64,000 bases of DNA from Acidobacteriota bacterium (lineage in GTDB: Bacteria; Acidobacteriota; Thermoanaerobaculia; Multivoradales; Multivoraceae), in NCBI GenBank assembly GCA_011523565.1, contig WTGL01000159.1, forward strand, positions 2,101 through 66,100. The letters run 5' to 3'. This document shows, in pieces, positions 5,269-54,361 of the stretch. The notes below the pieces were generated by a model, which had not been told where the DNA came from, searched no databases, and saw nothing but the letters and a program-made list of their open reading frames with translations. Position numbers and translations under genes: made by a program. The first letter of the stretch is position 1. Each line of letters starts with the position of its first letter.

Positions 5269-7947
5269 ATGACGCCGATGCTCCGGCACTACCTGACGGT
5301 GAAGGCGGAGCATCCCGACGCCATCCTTCTGTACCGGATGGGCGATTTCTTCGAGATGTTCTTCGAGGACGCCGTTACCGCGGCGCCGGTGCTCGATGTG
5401 GCGCTGACGGCCCGCCAGAAGGGCACGGCCAGCGAAGCGCCGATGTGCGGCGTGCCCCACCACGCGGTCGACGCCTACATCGGCAGGCTGCTCGACGCGG
5501 GCTTCAAGGTCGCGGTGTGCGACCAGGTCGAGGATCCGGCACAGGCCCGGGGCCTTGTACGCCGGGAGGTCACGCGGGTGGTGACGCCGGGGACGATCAG
5601 CGACCTCGAAATGCTGGACCAGGCCCGTCCGAACTACCTGGCCGGGATTCGTTTCGACGGGGCGTCCGGCGCAGGGGCGTTTCTCGATCTCTCGACCGGC
5701 GAGTTCTTCGTGCGGCGGTGGCCGAACGTGGAGGAGGCGGTCGAGGATCTGGAGAGGCTGGCGCCGCGGGAAGTTCTCACCTGCGCCGCCGATCTCGCGG
5801 CCGGCGCGGGTGACCCCGACGGACATCTGGCGGCCTGGATCGGCCGCGCCGGCACACCGCACACCGAAATCGAGGAGGACCAGGCTCCGAGACCGGCCGC
5901 GGCGGGGCGCGTCCTGCGGCGGCAGTTCGGAGTCCGGAACCTGCGGGGATTCGGTCTTGCCGAGGGGGAGGCGGCGGTCGCGGCGGCCGCCCTGGTGGTG
6001 GACTACGCGCGTGGCGCGGCGCGCTCCGACATCGACCACGTCGTTGCGCTGGAGGTCCAGCACGATGATCGCCGCGTGGTTCTGGACGAGACGACCCTTC
6101 GCAACCTGGAGGTCTTTCGCCATCTCCAGCACGAGGGGGGCAAGACCCTGATGGAGGTACTCGACCTGACGCTCACCGGACCGGGGACGCGCATGCTGCG
6201 ACGCTGGTTGAGCCGGCCCCTGCGTGACCTGGAGGTGCTCGGCGACCGCCACGACGGGGTGGCGGTGCTGGTCTCCGAGATCGGCCGGCGCGAGACGCTC
6301 CGGTCGCGGTTGATGAGCATTGCCGATCTGGAGCGGTTGACCTCGCGGGCGGTACTGGGACGGATCACGCCGCGGGAGGTCGGGGCGCTGCGGGACACCC
6401 TGCGCGAGGCGCCGTCCGTGCAGGGGGTTCTCGAGGGCCTGCGGGGGGAGCTTCTTGCCCGTCTCGCCGCGGTGGAGCCGCTGGGCGGGCTCCGGTCGAG
6501 GTTGGACTCCGTGCTGGCGGAAAGGCCCGGATCCCTGACCGAAGGCGGCGTGATCGCCGCTGGCGTCGACTCCGAACTCGACCGGCTCCGTTCGCTGGCG
6601 CGGGACGGCAAGGGGCACGTTGCCGCCCTTGAGGCGCGGGAGCGCGAAGCGACCGGTATCCCGACCCTGAAGGTCGGTTACAACCGGGTGTTCGGGTACT
6701 ACTTCGAGGTGCGGAAGACACAGCAGGACCGGGTTCCCGACCACTACGTGCGGCGGCAGACGTTGACCCATGCCGAGCGCTATGTCACCGACGAACTGAA
6801 GACGCTGGAACAGCAGATTCTCGGCGCCGAGAGCGGTCAGCTCGCGCTGGAACAGGAGTTGTTCGAGGGGCTGCGCCTGGAAATTGCGGACCAGGCCCCG
6901 CGGCTCCTGGAACTTGCCGCCGCGCTGGCGGAAATCGATTGCCTGGCCGCTCTGGCGGAGGTTGCCGCCCGGTACGACTACGTGCGACCGAGCATGATGC
7001 CGTCGGGAGGCCGTATCGAGATCCGCGATGGGCGGCACCCGGTGGTCGAGCGGTCGGCGGCGGCGGTGCGAGGCGCCTCGGGCTTCGTTCCCAACGACGT
7101 GGCGCTGGACCGCGAGACCGATCGGATCGTCCTGCTCACGGGTCCCAACATGGGCGGCAAGTCGACCTATCTGCGGCAGGTGGCGCTGATCGTGCTGATG
7201 GCTCATGCCGGCAGCTTCGTGCCCGCTCAGAGTGCCGAGATCGGCCTGGTGGACCGCATCTTCACCCGCGTCGGCGCCAGCGACGACCTGGCCCGGGGCG
7301 AGTCCACCTTCATGGTGGAGATGGTCGAGACCGCGAACATCCTCCGCCACGCGACGCGCGACAGCCTGGTCGTGCTCGACGAGGTCGGCCGCGGTACCTC
7401 GACGTACGACGGCCTGTCGCTGGCCTGGGCGATCGTCGAACGCCTGCACGAGCGGAACGGCTGTCTGGCTCTCTTCGCGACCCACTACCACGAACTGACC
7501 GGTCTGCCCGCGACGCTTTCCCGGGTGGCGAATCGACGCATGGCGGTCAAGGAGTGGCAGGACCAGATCCTGTTCCTGCACCGGGTGGCCGCGGGCCGCG
7601 CGGACAAGTCCTACGGCCTGCACGTCGCCCGGCTGGCCGGAGTGCCCAGGGAGGTGATCGAACGCGCGGCCGCGGTGCTCGAGAACATCGAGTCCCAGCA
7701 GTACAGCTTCTCAGGCAAGCCGAAGGTCGCCCTGGGGGCTGCCGGCGGACCGCCGGGCCCGGGAGCCGATCAGCTTTCCCTGTGGGCCGGCGAGGACGAG
7801 GCGGTGGTCGAAGCGCTTCGAGGCGTCGACGTGGACCAGTTGACGCCTGTAGCCGCGCTGAATCTGGTGCAGACCCTCCAGGACCGGCTCAGGTCGGGGC
7901 CGAAGCCGCCGGAGACCTCGGGGTCCGGCCGGGGCGAGAACTCCTAG
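5269..7947 (+). CDS. mutS: DNA mismatch repair protein MutS
   Basis: N-terminal MTPMLRHYLTVKAEHPDAILLYRMGDFFEMF and Walker A GPNMGGKST. Start set at the ATG at 5269 rather than the upstream ORF start. Confidence 0.95.
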   Translation: MTPMLRHYLTVKAEHPDAILLYRMGDFFEMFFEDAVTAAPVLDVALTARQKGTASEAPMCGVPHHAVDAYIGRLLDAGFKVAVCDQVEDPAQARGLVRREVTRVVTPGTISDLEMLDQARPNYLAGIRFDGASGAGAFLDLSTGEFFVRRWPNVEEAVEDLERLAPREVLTCAADLAAGAGDPDGHLAAWIGRAGTPHTEIEEDQAPRPAAAGRVLRRQFGVRNLRGFGLAEGEAAVAAAALVVDYARGAARSDIDHVVALEVQHDDRRVVLDETTLRNLEVFRHLQHEGGKTLMEVLDLTLTGPGTRMLRRWLSRPLRDLEVLGDRHDGVAVLVSEIGRRETLRSRLMSIADLERLTSRAVLGRITPREVGALRDTLREAPSVQGVLEGLRGELLARLAAVEPLGGLRSRLDSVLAERPGSLTEGGVIAAGVDSELDRLRSLARDGKGHVAALEAREREATGIPTLKVGYNRVFGYYFEVRKTQQDRVPDHYVRRQTLTHAERYVTDELKTLEQQILGAESGQLALEQELFEGLRLEIADQAPRLLELAAALAEIDCLAALAEVAARYDYVRPSMMPSGGRIEIRDGRHPVVERSAAAVRGASGFVPNDVALDRETDRIVLLTGPNMGGKSTYLRQVALIVLMAHAGSFVPAQSAEIGLVDRIFTRVGASDDLARGESTFMVEMVETANILRHATRDSLVVLDEVGRGTSTYDGLSLAWAIVERLHERNGCLALFATHYHELTGLPATLSRVANRRMAVKEWQDQILFLHRVAAGRADKSYGLHVARLAGVPREVIERAAAVLENIESQQYSFSGKPKVALGAAGGPPGPGADQLSLWAGEDEAVVEALRGVDVDQLTPVAALNLVQTLQDRLRSGPKPPETSGSGRGENS

Positions 7948-46241: not shown

Positions 46242-48551
46242 CTAGGGAGGAGTGCGGCCTCTGTCGCTGGGGGGCGGCGCCGACGGCGACGAGGATCTGG
46301 GCGGAGGGGAGTAGCTGGAAGGCCTCGAGGGCGGTGTGTAGCTGCGGGACGGCGGCGACGAGCGTGGCGACGAAGCGCGTGGCGTCGACCGCGTCCGGGT
46401 GGGGGGCGTGGAGCGTGTGCGCGTGGGTGTCGACCTCGGCGTGGAAGCCCTCGGTGGCGTGGAGCGCGTGCGAGTGGGCGTCGACTTCGGCGTGGACGCC
46501 CTCGGTGGCGTGGAGCGTGTGCGCGTGGGTGTCGACCTCGGCGTGGACGCCCTCGGTGGCGTGGAGCGCGTGCGAGTGGGCGTCGACTTCGGCGTGGAAG
46601 CCCTCGGTGGCGTGGAGCGCGTGCGAGTGGGCGTCGATCTCGGCGTGGAAGCCCTCGGCGGGGTCGAGCGGGTCCGGGTGGGTGTCGACTTGGGCGCGGA
46701 TGTCCGTGTCGGCACGGAACGGGTTCGGCTAGGTGTTGCCGTTCGCGGCGCGTTGACTCGTTCGGGCCGTCTCGATGGAGGATTCGCCGTGCGAGGGGCC
46801 GCCGGCACCGCGTCCCGGCCGCGGATCGCGTCGAGCACGCGGCGGGCGGGCGTCGGTCTCCGGGTGCGGTCGAGCACGTTTCCGCTCGCCCTCGGAGCCG
46901 CCACACGAGCCGGCGCCTTGTCGTCTGCGCCCTCGGAGTCTCGGGCGGTCGTCGTTGACGTTGGGGCCGCCGTCAGACCTCCGGAACTGACGCGTACGGC
47001 CTTCGGGGCTTCGGTTCGCCGAGCGTCGTCGAGGGACCTCCGCCGAAGCGTGACGCCCGTACCGGACTCCGTACCGGCGCCCGCTGTCGGCGAGTTGGAG
47101 CGCGTCCGGACGCCGCCGGCCGTTACGCCAACCAGACCGGATCGGCCGGCTACGGGGGGACCGCCCACGACTCGCACCGTCCCTTGCTGGTCGGGTGTTC
47201 GCGTCAGCTTGGCCTTGAGAGTCTCGTTCAGGTCCGTCCTTCGCGCGACGAAATCCGTGACATCGGGGAGTTCGCTTTCGGAAAGGCCGCGGCGCTTGCC
47301 GAGGAGGACCTGCTGTACCGCCTCGGGATTCCGCCAGTTTCGGTAGTCGATGCCGTTCGTGTCCGTCGTGATGATGCCGCGTGCGAGCTTCGGATGACGC
47401 TGGCGCAGGGAGCGGCCGTAGGTGTAACCGCGGCCGTAGCCCAGGTAGCCTGACGGGCAGAAGATCCAGGTGTTGAAGGGATCCCAGAAGCCCCCTGCCC
47501 ATCCGTAGAGTCCCCAACGGAGGCCGAAGCCCCGGCCGAGGTAGTAGCGGTGGTAGTAGCCGCGGGGGATCCACCCCACATACGACGGCCCCCAGTACCA
47601 GTACACGTGGCTCGGAGCGTAGATGGAGCTTGGGAACCAGAGCCAACCGTAGCCGGGATACAGGTTCCAGCTGCCGTAGTGATAGGTGAGGGGACCCCAG
47701 GGGTCGCGCGCGACCCAGTACAGTCCGGCGGGGGTATGCGTCCAGCGGCCTCGACTGTAGGGCTGCCAATCGTCCTCAACCGCGGGCTTCCAGGCCCGGC
47801 CATCCTCAACCTCCACCCATTGGCCGTGGTCGGTCAGGCTGGACCCGTAGCCGTCGACATCGACGGCGGCGTATGCCGCAAGCCGGGTGCGGTGAGCCCC
47901 TACCCATTCATCCAGGGCCAGAGCGGCGGCGCCGGCGCCGCTCTGAAGTTCGATCCACGGGTCGTCCAGACCTTGCACCAGAAGGGCTTCGCCATCGCGG
48001 ACGATCACCGAACCGCGCTGGGTGACGACCTCCGCGAAGCCGTCCAGCACAGCGATTTCCGCCCAGCGGTCGCCGTCGCTTTCGACCTGGTAGCGGCCGC
48101 CCTGTTTGGCGTAGACCCGGGCGTTCGTCGTGTCGATTGCCGGCAGCTCCCAGTCCAGCAGGTTGTTCGGGACCTCGAGGCTCAACCGGCCCCGGTGCAG
48201 GACGTAGAGGGAGTCCATGTCGTCCGCGTCCGGTGAGCCGGCGATCTGGGCGAGAGTGACCTCGCTGTCGTGGTCGAGAGCGAGAATCGAGCGGTCCGAC
48301 ATCAGCACGGCCAGCCGGCCGTACGGATTGGTCCAGATTCGGTCTCCGCGCAGGACCGGAAGGTGAATCTCCAAGTCGCTCTGCGCTCCGGAACGTGCCG
48401 CGAACAGGGTCGCGTCTCCGTCCAACGCACCGACGAGGCTGTAGACGCCCTCGAGTTGTCCTTGTTCCTGGGGTGCCGTCTGAGCGTGGGTGGCGGTCGC
48501 CACCCCTGCCGCGAGGACGATCAGTAGGGCTTGCGGGAGGGTACGTCTCAT
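46242..48551 (-). CDS. secreted FecR-domain protein with aromatic-rich central region and R/S/T/P-rich tandem-repeat C-terminus
   Basis: Signal peptide MRRTLPQALLIVLAAGVATATHAQ. FecR-like segment. G/Y/W-rich stretch. About 6 copies of a 17-aa repeat TPTRTRSTPPRASTP[RK]S. Confidence 0.65.
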   Translation of the reverse strand: MRRTLPQALLIVLAAGVATATHAQTAPQEQGQLEGVYSLVGALDGDATLFAARSGAQSDLEIHLPVLRGDRIWTNPYGRLAVLMSDRSILALDHDSEVTLAQIAGSPDADDMDSLYVLHRGRLSLEVPNNLLDWELPAIDTTNARVYAKQGGRYQVESDGDRWAEIAVLDGFAEVVTQRGSVIVRDGEALLVQGLDDPWIELQSGAGAAALALDEWVGAHRTRLAAYAAVDVDGYGSSLTDHGQWVEVEDGRAWKPAVEDDWQPYSRGRWTHTPAGLYWVARDPWGPLTYHYGSWNLYPGYGWLWFPSSIYAPSHVYWYWGPSYVGWIPRGYYHRYYLGRGFGLRWGLYGWAGGFWDPFNTWIFCPSGYLGYGRGYTYGRSLRQRHPKLARGIITTDTNGIDYRNWRNPEAVQQVLLGKRRGLSESELPDVTDFVARRTDLNETLKAKLTRTPDQQGTVRVVGGPPVAGRSGLVGVTAGGVRTRSNSPTAGAGTESGTGVTLRRRSLDDARRTEAPKAVRVSSGGLTAAPTSTTTARDSEGADDKAPARVAAPRASGNVLDRTRRPTPARRVLDAIRGRDAVPAAPRTANPPSRRPERVNAPRTATPSRTRSVPTRTSAPKSTPTRTRSTPPRASTPRSTPTRTRSTPPRASTPKSTPTRTRSTPPRASTPRSTPTRTRSTPPRASTPKSTPTRTRSTPPRASTPRSTPTRTRSTPPTRTRSTPRASSPRSSPPSRSYTPPSRPSSYSPPPRSSSPSAPPPSDRGRTPP
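46405..46700. repeat. 51-nt tandem repeat (~5.7 copies) inside the FecR-domain gene
   Basis: Unit GGCGTGGAGCGYGTGCGMGTGGGYGTCGACYTCGGCGTGGAMGCCCTCGGT is visible directly in the sequence. It also produces spurious plus-strand ORFs. Confidence 0.8.
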
Positions 48552-49993: not shown

Positions 49994-51427
49994 ATGGTAC
50001 CGGTGAAGCTCTACAACTCTCTCGGGCGACGGCTGGAGGAACTCGAGCCGCTCGTTCCCGGTCATGTCCGCCTCTACACCTGCGGTCCGACGGTGTATGA
50101 CCGCGTGCACATCGGCAATCTGCGCACGTTCGTATTCGAGGACGTGCTGCGAAGGACGCTCAGGTTCTTCGGCTACCGCGTCACCCAGGCGATGAACCTG
50201 ACCGATGTCGAGGACAAGATCATCGCCGCGTCGATCTCTGCCGGCGTCGACATCGGCGACTTCACCCGACCCCATGTGGACTCGTTCTTCGAGGACCTGT
50301 CGGCGCTTCGAATCGAGCCCGTGGAGCACTATCCGCGGGCCACGGCCCACATCGACGAGATGATCGCGATGATCCAGCAGCTGCTGGTAGCTGGCTACGC
50401 CTACCAGGCAGACGGTTCGGTGTTCTTTCGCATCGCCGCCGATGCCGACTACGGCAAGTTGTCCGGCATCGACGTCGACCGGGTGCGGCGGGGTGAACGT
50501 GTGCAGAGCGACGAGTACGGCAAGGAGGACGCGCGCGACTTCGTTCTGTGGAAAGGCGCCAAGGAAGGTGAGCCGGAGTGGGCGTCGCCGTGGGGCCCCG
50601 GTCGGCCGGGTTGGCACATCGAGTGCTCGGCGATGAGCCAGAAGTACCTGGGCACGACCTTCGACATCCACTGCGGAGGTGTCGACAACCTGTTTCCGCA
50701 TCACGAGAACGAGATCGCCCAGAGCGAATCGGCGAACGGCTGCCCGCTGGCGCGGTACTGGCTCCACTCCGAGCACCTGACGGTCGACGGCGAGAAGATG
50801 TCCAAGTCCCTCGGCAACTGCCACACCCTTGGAGATCTTCAGGGCAGGGGACTTCCGGTCCGCTCGATCCGCTACCTGCTGATCTCGGTCCACTACCGCC
50901 AGCAGCTCGACTTCACCTTCGCCAAGGTGGCGGAAGCGGGGCGAGCGGTGAAACGGATCGACGATATGCGGTTCCGGCTCGCCCATGAGGCGGAGCGGGC
51001 CGCCGATACCGCGCCCATCGAGGCCGCCGCGGCGGCGTTCGAGGACGGCTTCGCCTCCGCACTCGCCGACGACCTGAACACGTCCGCCGCCCTCGGTACG
51101 GTCTTTCGGTTCGTCCACGAAGTGAACGGGATGATCGACCAAGGTCTGCCTGCCGGCGGCAGGGCTCTCGTGGAGAGCGTGTTGCGGCGAGCCGACCAGG
51201 TGCTCGGAGTGCTGGACGCCGCGGCCTGGGCGGCGGACTCGGGTTCGGCCCCGGGAGACGGGGACCGTGGCCTGAGTGACGCGGAGGTCGAGAAACTGGT
51301 GCGGGCCCGGAGCGAAGCGAGAGCGGCGCGGGACTTCGCGGCTGCCGACCAGCTCCGCGACGAACTGGCGGCCGCCGGGGTGGTGGTGGAGGACACGCCG
51401 GACGGTAGTCGCTGGAAGCGGTCCTGA
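49994..51427 (+). CDS. cysS: cysteine--tRNA ligase
   Basis: HIGN and KMSKS motifs. Confidence 0.95.
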   Translation: MVPVKLYNSLGRRLEELEPLVPGHVRLYTCGPTVYDRVHIGNLRTFVFEDVLRRTLRFFGYRVTQAMNLTDVEDKIIAASISAGVDIGDFTRPHVDSFFEDLSALRIEPVEHYPRATAHIDEMIAMIQQLLVAGYAYQADGSVFFRIAADADYGKLSGIDVDRVRRGERVQSDEYGKEDARDFVLWKGAKEGEPEWASPWGPGRPGWHIECSAMSQKYLGTTFDIHCGGVDNLFPHHENEIAQSESANGCPLARYWLHSEHLTVDGEKMSKSLGNCHTLGDLQGRGLPVRSIRYLLISVHYRQQLDFTFAKVAEAGRAVKRIDDMRFRLAHEAERAADTAPIEAAAAAFEDGFASALADDLNTSAALGTVFRFVHEVNGMIDQGLPAGGRALVESVLRRADQVLGVLDAAAWAADSGSAPGDGDRGLSDAEVEKLVRARSEARAARDFAAADQLRDELAAAGVVVEDTPDGSRWKRS

Positions 51428-51437
51428 TCGCGGCCGC

Positions 51438-51857
51438 ATGAGCGAAGCCGGAGCGGAGCGCGAGCCGCGCCTGAGCGGTGCGGAGGCGGAGCAGGCCGCG
51501 GCGGACCTGCTCAGGCGGAACGGGCACCGGATCCTGGGACGGAACGTCGACACCGTGGCTGGCGAACTGGACCTGGTGACGATGGACGGAGACACGCTCT
51601 GCTTCGTCGAGGTCAAGGCCCGGTTCGATCCGCGCTTCGGCGGTGCGGCCGCGGCGGTGGACCGGCGAAAGCGGCGCCGCCTCGTACGCGCGGCGGAGGC
51701 CTACCTGAGCGACCCGGAACGGACGCCGCTACGGCTCGGTCCGTGCCGTTTCGACGTCGTGGCGGCGACCTGGCAGCCGGAACTCGGAGAATGGCGGTTC
51801 ACGCACTATCGGGATGCATTCACCGTCGACGACACGGGCGGGCGAAGCTGGTTGTAG
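51438..51857 (+). CDS. yraN: YraN family (UPF0102) endonuclease-like protein
   Basis: ELDLV...FVEVK motif. Confidence 0.8.
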   Translation: MSEAGAEREPRLSGAEAEQAAADLLRRNGHRILGRNVDTVAGELDLVTMDGDTLCFVEVKARFDPRFGGAAAAVDRRKRRRLVRAAEAYLSDPERTPLRLGPCRFDVVAATWQPELGEWRFTHYRDAFTVDDTGGRSWL

Positions 51858-51869
51858 GGCGCCTGCGAG

Positions 51870-51899
51870 TTGACAGTCCGGAAGAGGGGGCCGTATCCT
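51870..51899 (+). promoter_or_regulatory. sigma-70-like promoter for the tRNA cluster
   Basis: TTGACA, an 18-nt spacer, then TATCCT, about 45 nt upstream of the first tRNA. Confidence 0.5.
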
Positions 51900-51943
51900 C
51901 CGCGACTCAGGGCCTGCCGGTTGGCCGGCGGGTTCGCTCCGGC

Positions 51944-52041
51944 GCGGGAATAGCTCAGTGGTAGAGCACAACCTTGCCAAGGTTGGGGTCGCGGGTTTGC
52001 AAAACCCTTATTCGCCGGTTCGAATCCGGCCGTCGCCTCCA
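51944..52041 (+). tRNA. chimeric tRNA: 5' portion of tRNA-Gly(GCC) fused to 3' portion of tRNA-Cys(GCA)
   Basis: Gly acceptor, D arm, anticodon arm (GCC) and T-stem 5' strand run directly into the Cys anticodon arm (TTGCAAA), T arm, acceptor 3' strand and U73-CCA. Junction at a shared CGGGTT. The two acceptor strands cannot pair. Confidence 0.65.
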
Positions 52042-52055
52042 GACTTTCCTTACAC

Positions 52056-52139
52056 GCCGGAGTGGCGGAACGGCAGACGCAGGGGACTTAAAATCCCCGG
52101 CCCCTAGTGGGCGTGTGGGTTCGAATCCCACCTCCGGCA
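52056..52139 (+). tRNA. tRNA-Leu (anticodon TAA), type II
   Basis: Acceptor GCCGGAG/CTCCGGC, anticodon loop CTTAAAA, long variable arm. CCA not contiguous. Confidence 0.85.
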
Positions 52140-52187
52140 CGCCACGTAGATTGGTACCCGTGGAAACTGGTACTATCCCGGTCCGAA

Positions 52188-52433
52188 ATGAATCGGACAC
52201 TGGCCGAGTTGGCGGAATCGGGCGACGACCGGCTGGTCGAGATCGTCGGCGTGGCCGGTGACGGCCCCGTCAGTTGGCGGCTGCGCGAGATCGGTTTCTG
52301 CCGGGGAGCCGCGGTGCGGTTCGTTCGGCGGGCGCCCCTGGGCGATCCGTCGATGTATGAGCTGCACGGCGCCATCCTCAGCCTGCGCCGCAGCGAGGCG
52401 AGTCGAATCCGCGTCGGGCCGGGCAGCTCATGA
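52188..52433 (+). CDS. feoA: ferrous iron transport protein A
   Basis: FeoA SH3-like domain, 81 aa. Confidence 0.8.
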   Translation: MNRTLAELAESGDDRLVEIVGVAGDGPVSWRLREIGFCRGAAVRFVRRAPLGDPSMYELHGAILSLRRSEASRIRVGPGSS

Positions 52434-54361
52434 CGGAGCTGGTCCGGCTGGGGACGGCAGAGGCCTCCGGGGAACCTCGGCGGTTCGCCATCCTCGGGGC
52501 GCCGAACTCGGGCAAGACGACGTTGTTCAACGCGCTCACCGGGCACCGGGCGAAGGCCGGGAACTACCCGGGAGTCACGGTCGACCGGCGCGAAGGCGAC
52601 CTGCATCGCCGCTTCTCGGACGAACCCGTTCGGCTCATCGATCTTCCCGGCGTGTACAGCTTGGAACCCCAATCGGAGGACGAAGCGGTAGCCGTGCGCG
52701 TTCTGCGCGGAGAGTTCGGCGAACCGCCGCCGGACGGCGTGGTCGTCGTAGTGGACGCCACCACGATCGAGCGCGCCTTGCCACTCGTGGCGGAGGCCGC
52801 GGCCCTGGGTCTCCCCCTCTGCATCGCTCTGACCATGGTCGATGAGCTGAAGGCGCGGCACGGCGAAATCGACGTCAGCGCACTGATGGCCGTCCTCGGG
52901 GTGCCGGTGCTGGGCGTGGTCGGCAACCGCGGCCTCGGCATCGATGACCTCGGCGCGCTCCTGGCCGGGTCCCGGAACAACTGGACGCCGTCTCCGGACT
53001 TGAAGGAGGCCGCGGTGTCGGGCACGCCGGAGGCGAGGTTCAACTGGACGTACGGGGTGCTGGGGCGATGTCGCCGCGAGGTGCCACGAGCCGATCACTG
53101 GAGCCGGCGACTGGACCGGTTTCTGCTCCATCCGATCTTCGGGCCGGCGGTCTTTCTGACCTTCGTCGCCCTCTTCTTCCAGGCGATCTTCACCTGGGCA
53201 ACGCCGGCGATGGACCTGCTCTCGGGCCTGATGGACGGTCTCGCGGATCGGCTGCTCGTCGCTCTGCCGGACACCCTGGTGACGCGGCTGCTCGCCGACG
53301 GGGTGGTTCGGGGCGTCGGTGCGGTGATCGTCTTCCTGCCCCAGATCGTGCTCCTGTTCACGGTCATCCTGTTTCTCGAGGGGTGCGGCTACATGGCGCG
53401 CGCAGCGTTCGTCGTGGACCGGATGATGGGTTGGGTGGGCCTGGAGGGCCGCTGCTTCCTCGCTCTGCTCTCTTCGTACGCCTGTGCCGTTCCGGGCATC
53501 ATGGCGACCCGGACGATTCCTTCGGAGCGGGATCGACTCACTACCATCCTGGTCGCTCCCTTCGCCACCTGCTCGGCCCGGTTGCCGGTGTACACGCTGC
53601 TCATCGCGGCGTTCATTCCCGCCGAACGGGTGTTCGGACCGTTCACCTGGCAGGGTTTTACCCTGGGCGGCCTGTACGTCCTGGGAACGGCGACCGCTCT
53701 CCTTTCGGCCGCCGTCCTGAAACGGGGCCTGATGCGGGGCGCCTCGCTGCCGTTCTACCTCGAGCTGCCGCCGTTCCGCCTGCCGCGGCCAAGTGACATA
53801 TTGCTCGGCGTCTGGGACCGTGCACGGATGTTCCTGCGGCGTGCCGGCACGATCATCCTGAGCGTCAGCATCGTCCTCTGGTTCCTGCTCAATCTGCCGC
53901 GGAGGGCCGCCGATCCGCAGCTCGGCGACGCGGCGAACCAGCAGGCGATCCTAGAGGGCAGCTACGCGGCTTCGGTCGGCAGATTCCTGGAGCCGGTGTT
54001 CGCCCCCATGGACTTCGACTGGCGCATCAACGTCGGTCTGGTGGCTTCCCAGGCGGCCCGAGAGGTCATGGTCGCCACACTCGCACAGATCTACGCTCAC
54101 GAAGGCGAGGCCAGGGAGGGCCTGGGCGGTGTTCTGGCCGGTGGCGGTGGGCGCGGCGGCGAACCGGTGCTGTCCCGCGCTTCGGCACTTGCCCTGCTCG
54201 TCTACTTCGCGTTCGCCATGCAGTGCATGTCGACCCTGGTCGTGATCCGTCGCGAGACGGGGAAGTGGCGATGGCCGGCCTTCACGTTCATCTACATGAC
54301 CGGCCTGGGCTGGCTCGGGGCCTGGGTCACCTTCCAACTGGCGACGGCGGCAGGAGCCTGA
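52430..54361 (+). CDS. feoB: ferrous iron transport protein B
   Basis: G-protein domain (GAPNSGKTTLFNALTG) plus polytopic membrane domain. ATGA overlap with feoA. Confidence 0.95.
   Translation: MTELVRLGTAEASGEPRRFAILGAPNSGKTTLFNALTGHRAKAGNYPGVTVDRREGDLHRRFSDEPVRLIDLPGVYSLEPQSEDEAVAVRVLRGEFGEPPPDGVVVVVDATTIERALPLVAEAAALGLPLCIALTMVDELKARHGEIDVSALMAVLGVPVLGVVGNRGLGIDDLGALLAGSRNNWTPSPDLKEAAVSGTPEARFNWTYGVLGRCRREVPRADHWSRRLDRFLLHPIFGPAVFLTFVALFFQAIFTWATPAMDLLSGLMDGLADRLLVALPDTLVTRLLADGVVRGVGAVIVFLPQIVLLFTVILFLEGCGYMARAAFVVDRMMGWVGLEGRCFLALLSSYACAVPGIMATRTIPSERDRLTTILVAPFATCSARLPVYTLLIAAFIPAERVFGPFTWQGFTLGGLYVLGTATALLSAAVLKRGLMRGASLPFYLELPPFRLPRPSDILLGVWDRARMFLRRAGTIILSVSIVLWFLLNLPRRAADPQLGDAANQQAILEGSYAASVGRFLEPVFAPMDFDWRINVGLVASQAAREVMVATLAQIYAHEGEAREGLGGVLAGGGGRGGEPVLSRASALALLVYFAFAMQCMSTLVVIRRETGKWRWPAFTFIYMTGLGWLGAWVTFQLATAAGA

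Follow-up and report, generated by a model that had tools for sequence, protein, structure and literature searches.

The chimera of tRNA-Gly(GCC) and tRNA-Cys(GCA) found at positions 51944–52041 of the window, the stretch of 64,000 nucleotides analyzed here (68% G+C, zero Ns), is very probably the product of a scaffolding mis-join that dropped 93 nt between two ordinary tRNA genes. On this reading, the true genome carries, with the same high probability, a promoter, tRNA-Gly(GCC), a 41-nt spacer, tRNA-Cys(GCA), a 14-nt spacer, and tRNA-Leu(TAA). The intact sequence was present in the same population, contigs ended at the breakpoints, and the junction was rebuilt from these contig ends. In biological terms, the locus would be an ordinary Gly-Cys-Leu tRNA cluster, and the chimera would not be a gene.

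The 98-nt interval reads GCGGGAATAGCTCAGTGGTAGAGCACAACCTTGCCAAGGTTGGGGTCGCGGGTT followed by TGCAAAACCCTTATTCGCCGGTTCGAATCCGGCCGTCGCCTCCA on the forward strand. Its first part (51944–51997) corresponds to nt 1–54 of tRNA-Gly(GCC), comprising the acceptor 5′ strand, D arm, anticodon arm, variable loop, T-stem 5′ strand, and the TT of the T loop, and was identical at 54/54 positions to the intact tRNA-Gly(GCC) of two public contigs, L001 (6507–6560) and L002. The second part (51998–52041) corresponds to the final 44 nt of tRNA-Cys(GCA), comprising U33 of the anticodon loop, the T arm, the acceptor 3′ strand, and U73-CCA, and was identical at 44/44 positions, U73-CCA included, to the intact tRNA-Cys(GCA) of L001 (6654–6697) and L002. 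The probable false join lies between 51997 and 51998, where the window reads GTCGCGGGTT and then TGCAAAACCC; it was placed by the alignments, by the end of contig L005, and by rebuilding the junction from contigs L005 and L117. The 93 missing nt comprise 21 nt of tRNA-Gly at its 3′ end, the 41-nt spacer, and 31 nt of tRNA-Cys at its 5′ end.

As assembled, the chimera has neither the acceptor stem nor the single anticodon arm and stable fold of a functional tRNA cloverleaf. No tRNA was called by ARAGORN in 51944–52041, and the Rfam tRNA model gave only a local match (39.6 bits, model positions 8–63), in which the acceptor stem was absent and the Cys anticodon arm was treated as a 26-nt insertion. 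The 7-bp acceptor stem is not formed, as GCGGGAA and CGTCGCC pair at 3/7 positions by eye, and two anticodon arms (GCC and GCA) are present rather than one. The fold energy of the 98-mer was close to that of shuffled sequence (z = 0.03), whereas the intact Gly and Cys genes gave z values of −2.43 and −2.15, and both restored genes folded as cloverleaves. The Gly T loop supplies the first T of TTGCAAA, the apparent anticodon loop of the chimera. The only complete gene of the Gly-Cys-Leu cluster in the assembled window is tRNA-Leu(TAA) (52056–52140, forward strand); it was called by ARAGORN and matched the Rfam tRNA model over its full length with 58.3 bits.

The genes around the cluster were assigned from Pfam matches. 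Upstream lies cysS, encoding cysteinyl-tRNA synthetase (49994–51427, forward strand; window coordinates derived by offset from an alignment), whose product in the identical loci of L001 and L002 has 477 aa and contains tRNA-synt_1e and CysS_C. It is followed by a YraN/UPF0102 family gene (51438–51857, forward strand; PF02021) and by a promoter-like site, TTGACA-18-TATCCT (51870–51899, forward strand), a consensus match of which one was found against 0.1 expected. Downstream of tRNA-Leu are feoA (52188–52433, forward strand; FeoA) and feoB (52430–54361; FeoB_N and FeoB_C), both assigned on the identical genes of L001 and L114. Within window positions 49994–54361, cysS is located approximately 0.5 kb upstream of a cluster containing tRNA-Cys.

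The true locus, as seen in L001 and L002, has the same Gly(GCC), Cys(GCA), Leu(UAA) order on one strand as the E. coli glyW-cysT-leuZ operon, the order of which was taken from the K-12 annotation; the cluster is complete in both, and the trio was also found in dozens of Thermoanaerobaculia and Ca. Multivorans genomes. The copy in the window differs from the E. coli operon in the 93 nt absent through the probable mis-join, and the neighbors differ as well, with cysS-yraN upstream and feoAB downstream here and pgsA and yecA in E. coli. A BLAST search of the intact cluster against E. coli genomes matched the Gly gene only. Several descriptive claims of an earlier note, made from the sequence of this interval alone, are borne out by these data, namely the fusion of a Gly(GCC) half with a Cys(GCA) half, acceptor strands that cannot pair, and a glyW-cysT-leuZ-like context with an intact tRNA-Leu(TAA) downstream.

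Other assemblies of the population were identified by the exact YraN and FeoA proteins, which were encoded on 22–23 public contigs (YraN: 23) from JGI 3300033057, 3300033058, 3300033112, and 3300033113, ENA ERZ27234773, and Logan SRR106949xx runs; the literature was also searched for the sample and run accessions, with no matches. These contigs were 99.9–100% identical to the window in aligned blocks reaching up to ~6 kb on each side of the locus, with differences at 0–4 positions per 5.8–6.6 kb aligned block. Intact versions with 93 extra nt were found in L001 (ENA ERZ27234773; contig named k141_), L002 (JGI 3300033058; a 1.02-Mb contig), and L118 (Logan SRR10694908). ARAGORN called complete Gly(GCC), Cys(GCA), and Leu(TAA) genes on L001 and L002, with tRNA-Gly at 6507–6581 and tRNA-Cys at 6623–6697 of L001; L118, whose first base falls within the Gly T stem, contains the complete tRNA-Cys and the 3′ end only of tRNA-Gly. 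The same 93-nt gap as in the window was present in L003 (3300033057) and L004 (3300033113), and the locus was split over two contigs, L005 and L117, in 3300033112. The earlier note had offered two readings, an assembly artefact or a true loss of both genes; the two separate intact genes of L001 and L002, found in assemblies rather than in reads, favor the former and speak against the latter.

A search for SNPs separating the "deleted" from the intact contigs found none, and the "deleted" L004/L116 equaled the intact L002/L115 at every variable site downstream. The SNPs thus did not track the deletion and gave no indication of a distinct strain. A scan of metagenome contigs for the Cys 3′ half, performed to find further assemblies of the population or a second Cys copy, found neither; the 10 contigs obtained all belonged to other organisms, and their genes were intact wherever not cut off. 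A second strain or species, 96.6% identical over cysS-yraN, was represented by L006 (Logan SRR10694902; positions 79–1570) and co-occurred in at least one run, and is a candidate source of the shared k-mers breaking the assembly at this locus.

The gene order was also examined in relatives. A scan of reference genomes for the Cys 3′ half, using a pattern of 38 specified bases with a free variable loop, matched 94 loci from Acidobacteriota (Thermoanaerobaculia, Holophagales, and Ca. Multivorans) and Chloroflexota. None of the 94 belonged to the species of the window, and the nearest locus was L104 of a Porites lutea-associated MAG (~91% identity). The tRNA-Cys was complete at every related locus not cut off, and nearly all of these loci had a complete Gly(GCC) upstream and, in Acidobacteriota, Leu(TAA) downstream. 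The order cysS-yraN-Gly-Cys-Leu-feoA-feoB was kept at 75–92% nucleotide identity in many Thermoanaerobaculia and Ca. Multivorans genomes (L020–L113). Each complete chromosome contained one match to the pattern, so tRNA-Cys appears to be single-copy, with the proviso that the pattern may have missed a divergent second copy, and a real loss would therefore probably be lethal. Two related MAGs (L081 and L083) had an additional Gly between Cys and Leu, giving Gly(GCC)-Cys(GCA)-Gly(GCC)-Leu(TAA). Freshwater Chloroflexota (Ca. Limnocylindrus and Aquidulcis; L022–L112) also matched the Cys 3′-half pattern, and their array differs, reading Leu-Leu-Val-Phe-Gly-Gln-Cys.

The two unjoined contigs of 3300033112 end at the breakpoints of the window. 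L005 terminates at ...GGGGTCGCGGGTT, which is exactly window position 51997, the left breakpoint, 54 nt into tRNA-Gly, and its final 55 nt consist of 1 nt of upstream sequence and Gly nt 1–54. L117 starts at GCGAGGGTCTGCAAAA (in longer form, GCGAGGGTCTGCAAAACCC), an intact-type Cys sequence, 9 nt before the right breakpoint and 53 nt before the end of tRNA-Cys; its first 55 nt consist of the final 53 nt of tRNA-Cys and 2 nt beyond the gene. This is the pattern expected of k = 55 de Bruijn contigs entering tRNA repeats, with separate contig ends located k or k−1 bases inside the repeats. L117 crosses the right breakpoint unbroken, which argues that a deletion allele was not the cause of the contig ends in 3300033112. 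The possibility that the L005 end marks a true branch between two alleles in this sample was rejected, since L117 starts upstream of the point where two alleles would merge again and continues past that point without interruption. Four Logan contigs stop 30 nt into the same tRNA-Gly; Logan uses k = 31, and every 31-mer is distinct in Logan contigs (PMC12424806). Across the loci of the metagenome and genome scans, tRNAs 100% identical to the intact genes were found in 53 loci for Gly and 49 loci for Cys, and relatives with identical tRNAs probably co-occur in the same samples.

To rebuild the junction, the end of L005 was slid over the start of L117, and every ungapped overlap of 1–120 nt was scored. 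The best overlap was 9 nt long, TCGCGGGTT over GCGAGGGTC, with 6/9 positions matching, and L005 followed by L117 from its base 10 reproduced exactly the 80 nt around the window junction. This exact reconstruction indicates that the "deletion" is the product of merging two contig ends on their best chance overlap. In the "deleted" contig L003, a 51-nt tandem repeat ~5.4 kb from the junction contains 100 consecutive Ns, indicating that scaffolding was in use in these records.

By default, metaSPAdes uses k = 21, 33, and 55, and the SPAdes scaffolder tries to fix small gaps by Hamming overlap, accepting scores > 0.7. Overlaps in the register of the junction scored 0.67 for 9 nt, 0.75 for 8 nt, 0.71 for 7 nt, and 0.80 for 5 nt, to be compared with the acceptance threshold of 0.7. 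The 9-nt overlap (0.67) is that of sample 3300033112, in which the contigs are indeed unjoined. In the other samples, the right-hand contig would have to start 1–4 nt later to give an acceptable overlap; most relatives have GACT after Cys, which makes it plausible that the repeat extended 1–4 nt past Cys in those samples. The JGI in-house workflow uses k = 33–127, unlike the k = 55 signature, which thus probably implies other settings or an external assembly. We infer that the assembler was metaSPAdes at these defaults, and likewise the exact rule by which the gap was fixed.

The mis-join could have formed as follows. In a de Bruijn graph of k ~55, the 75-nt Gly and Cys genes would behave as repeats, because many co-occurring relatives have the same sequences. 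Of the unique contigs, the upstream one would end about k bases into tRNA-Gly, and the downstream one would begin about k bases short of the tRNA-Cys 3′ end. The scaffolder would link both contigs and "close" the 84-nt gap by overlapping their ends instead of filling it. Such an overlap would rest on the weak chance similarity of CGCGGGTT over CGAGGGTC, and 93 nt would be removed. The same junction recurs in two to at least three separate assemblies besides the window, so the artefact would have to be deterministic; given one genome, one k, and communities that resemble each other, this is plausible. As in known de Bruijn scaffold mis-joins at short repeats, the breakpoints lie k or k−1 bases into repeats, the end-overlap join is reproducible, an N-filled scaffold gap occurs nearby, and larger-k assemblies are intact, whereas the overlap in the present case is unusually short and imperfect.

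The competing explanation that survives best, although improbable, is a real 93-bp segregating deletion, caused by replication slippage or illegitimate recombination between CGCGGGTT in the Gly T stem and CGAGGGTC in the Cys anticodon stem. Both genes would be inactivated, the promoter and tRNA-Leu(TAA) would be kept, and the cells would survive by a second Gly/Cys copy or by polyploidy. An identical junction in the window, JGI 3300033057, and JGI 3300033113 is consistent with such an allele, as are the 6/8 similarity between the two sites and the unaffected promoter and tRNA-Leu, and de Bruijn assemblers normally invent no k-mers. However, the left breakpoint is the end of L005, while its partner L117 is of the intact type and unbroken at the right breakpoint, and both contig ends fit k = 55 as counted from the tRNA boundaries. 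Moreover, the deletion has no linked SNP, the k141 assembly (L001) and the k31 Logan contig (L118) are intact, and the seemingly single-copy state of Cys in complete relatives would make the allele lethal in a haploid cell. Marginally less likely again is that this host-associated Acidobacteriota population harbors a real deletion allele at high frequency and that its match to k = 55 is coincidental. In that event, the cells would have lost a tRNA-Gly(GCC) gene together with what is apparently their sole tRNA-Cys(GCA) gene, and would tolerate this either through polyploid heterozygosity or through an undetected second copy.

The sequence at the junction also disagrees with the route proposed by the earlier note, a microhomology-mediated genomic deletion at a CGGGTT hexamer common to both genes. 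The intact Cys gene has AGGGTC and lacks CGGGTT, and its anticodon loop is CTGCAAA, not TTGCAAA as had been assumed. The parental sites are GCGGGTT/CGAAT in Gly and GAGGGTC/TGCAAAA in Cys (slashes mark the breakpoints); their sole common string, GGGT, lies 1 nt off the junction, where the two sites have no base in common. The breakpoints coincide with the k = 55 contig ends of the unjoined sample, and other assembly methods gave intact genes for the same population. The chimera resembles microhomology deletions and tRNA pseudogenes in that two truncated tRNA halves are fused with GGGT nearby, but it differs from them in having no shared base at the exact junction and in appearing in one assembly type alone.

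Far less probable than a deletion by slippage or illegitimate recombination is site-specific recombination by an integrase with the tRNA-Cys anticodon loop as its target and a pseudo-site in the Gly T loop. This idea draws on L063, a relative in which an integrase remnant is flanked by a 45-nt repeat of the Cys 3′ half, beginning at C32; the repeat indicates that tRNA-Cys is an integration site in this clade, and it starts at about the same base as the right breakpoint. We rejected an integrase-mediated deletion because the window locus contains no integrase or other mobile element and a crossover would have no homology to use between the two loops, TTCGAAT and CTGCAAA; the contig ends and the k = 55 fit weigh against it as they do against a real deletion. 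The window is like att-site tRNA 3′ halves in presenting a tRNA-Cys half that starts in the anticodon loop beside foreign sequence, which is genuine in L063. Unlike such sites, the half in the window is preceded by the neighboring tRNA-Gly rather than by an element, and no intact Cys copy or integrase is found nearby.

The L063 locus is of interest in its own right. In this Thermoanaerobaculia MAG (JALXFE010000149.1; 202–245 and 1993–2036, minus strand), the copy of the Cys 3′ half (C32 to CCA, 45 nt) is located 1.75 kb downstream of an intact tRNA-Cys. The ORFs between the copies (533–1876) were judged by eye to be pieces of a tyrosine-integrase-like ORF and a ParE-like toxin/antitoxin pair, and the region resembles what remains of an element that had integrated at tRNA-Cys.

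The least probable explanation of all is a functional unconventional RNA, with two anticodon arms, with a very long variable arm, or serving as a processed leader for tRNA-Leu: the Rfam score exceeds the gathering score of 29 and the alignment to the model takes in the D arm and the Gly anticodon arm along with the Cys T arm, but the acceptor stem, an ARAGORN call, and a fold more stable than that of shuffled sequence are all missing, and the arrangement is not conserved, with two separate genes in related loci and the intact version in the same population.

Under the preferred reading of a scaffolding mis-join, the locus is of practical value as a warning when genomes assembled from such scaffolds are rated for completeness by their tRNAs. 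With this contig, a genome would be rated as having no tRNA-Cys and as short of one tRNA-Gly, and annotation by Infernal alone could report a spurious tRNA, since 39.6 bits exceeds the Rfam cut-off. Scaffolding of metagenomes at short k can silently remove what lies between adjacent tRNA genes, without Ns.

Another repeat in these records is found in a minus-strand DUF6600 gene (46242–48551), which ends in imperfect 51-nt tandem repeats (window 46402–46707). The 100 N of the JGI 3300033057 scaffold (L003 1067–1166) lie inside this repeat with zero sequence missing relative to the window, so the repeat copy number is unreliable in all of these assemblies. The repeat unit encodes 17 aa and is rich in Pro, Thr, Arg, and Ser.
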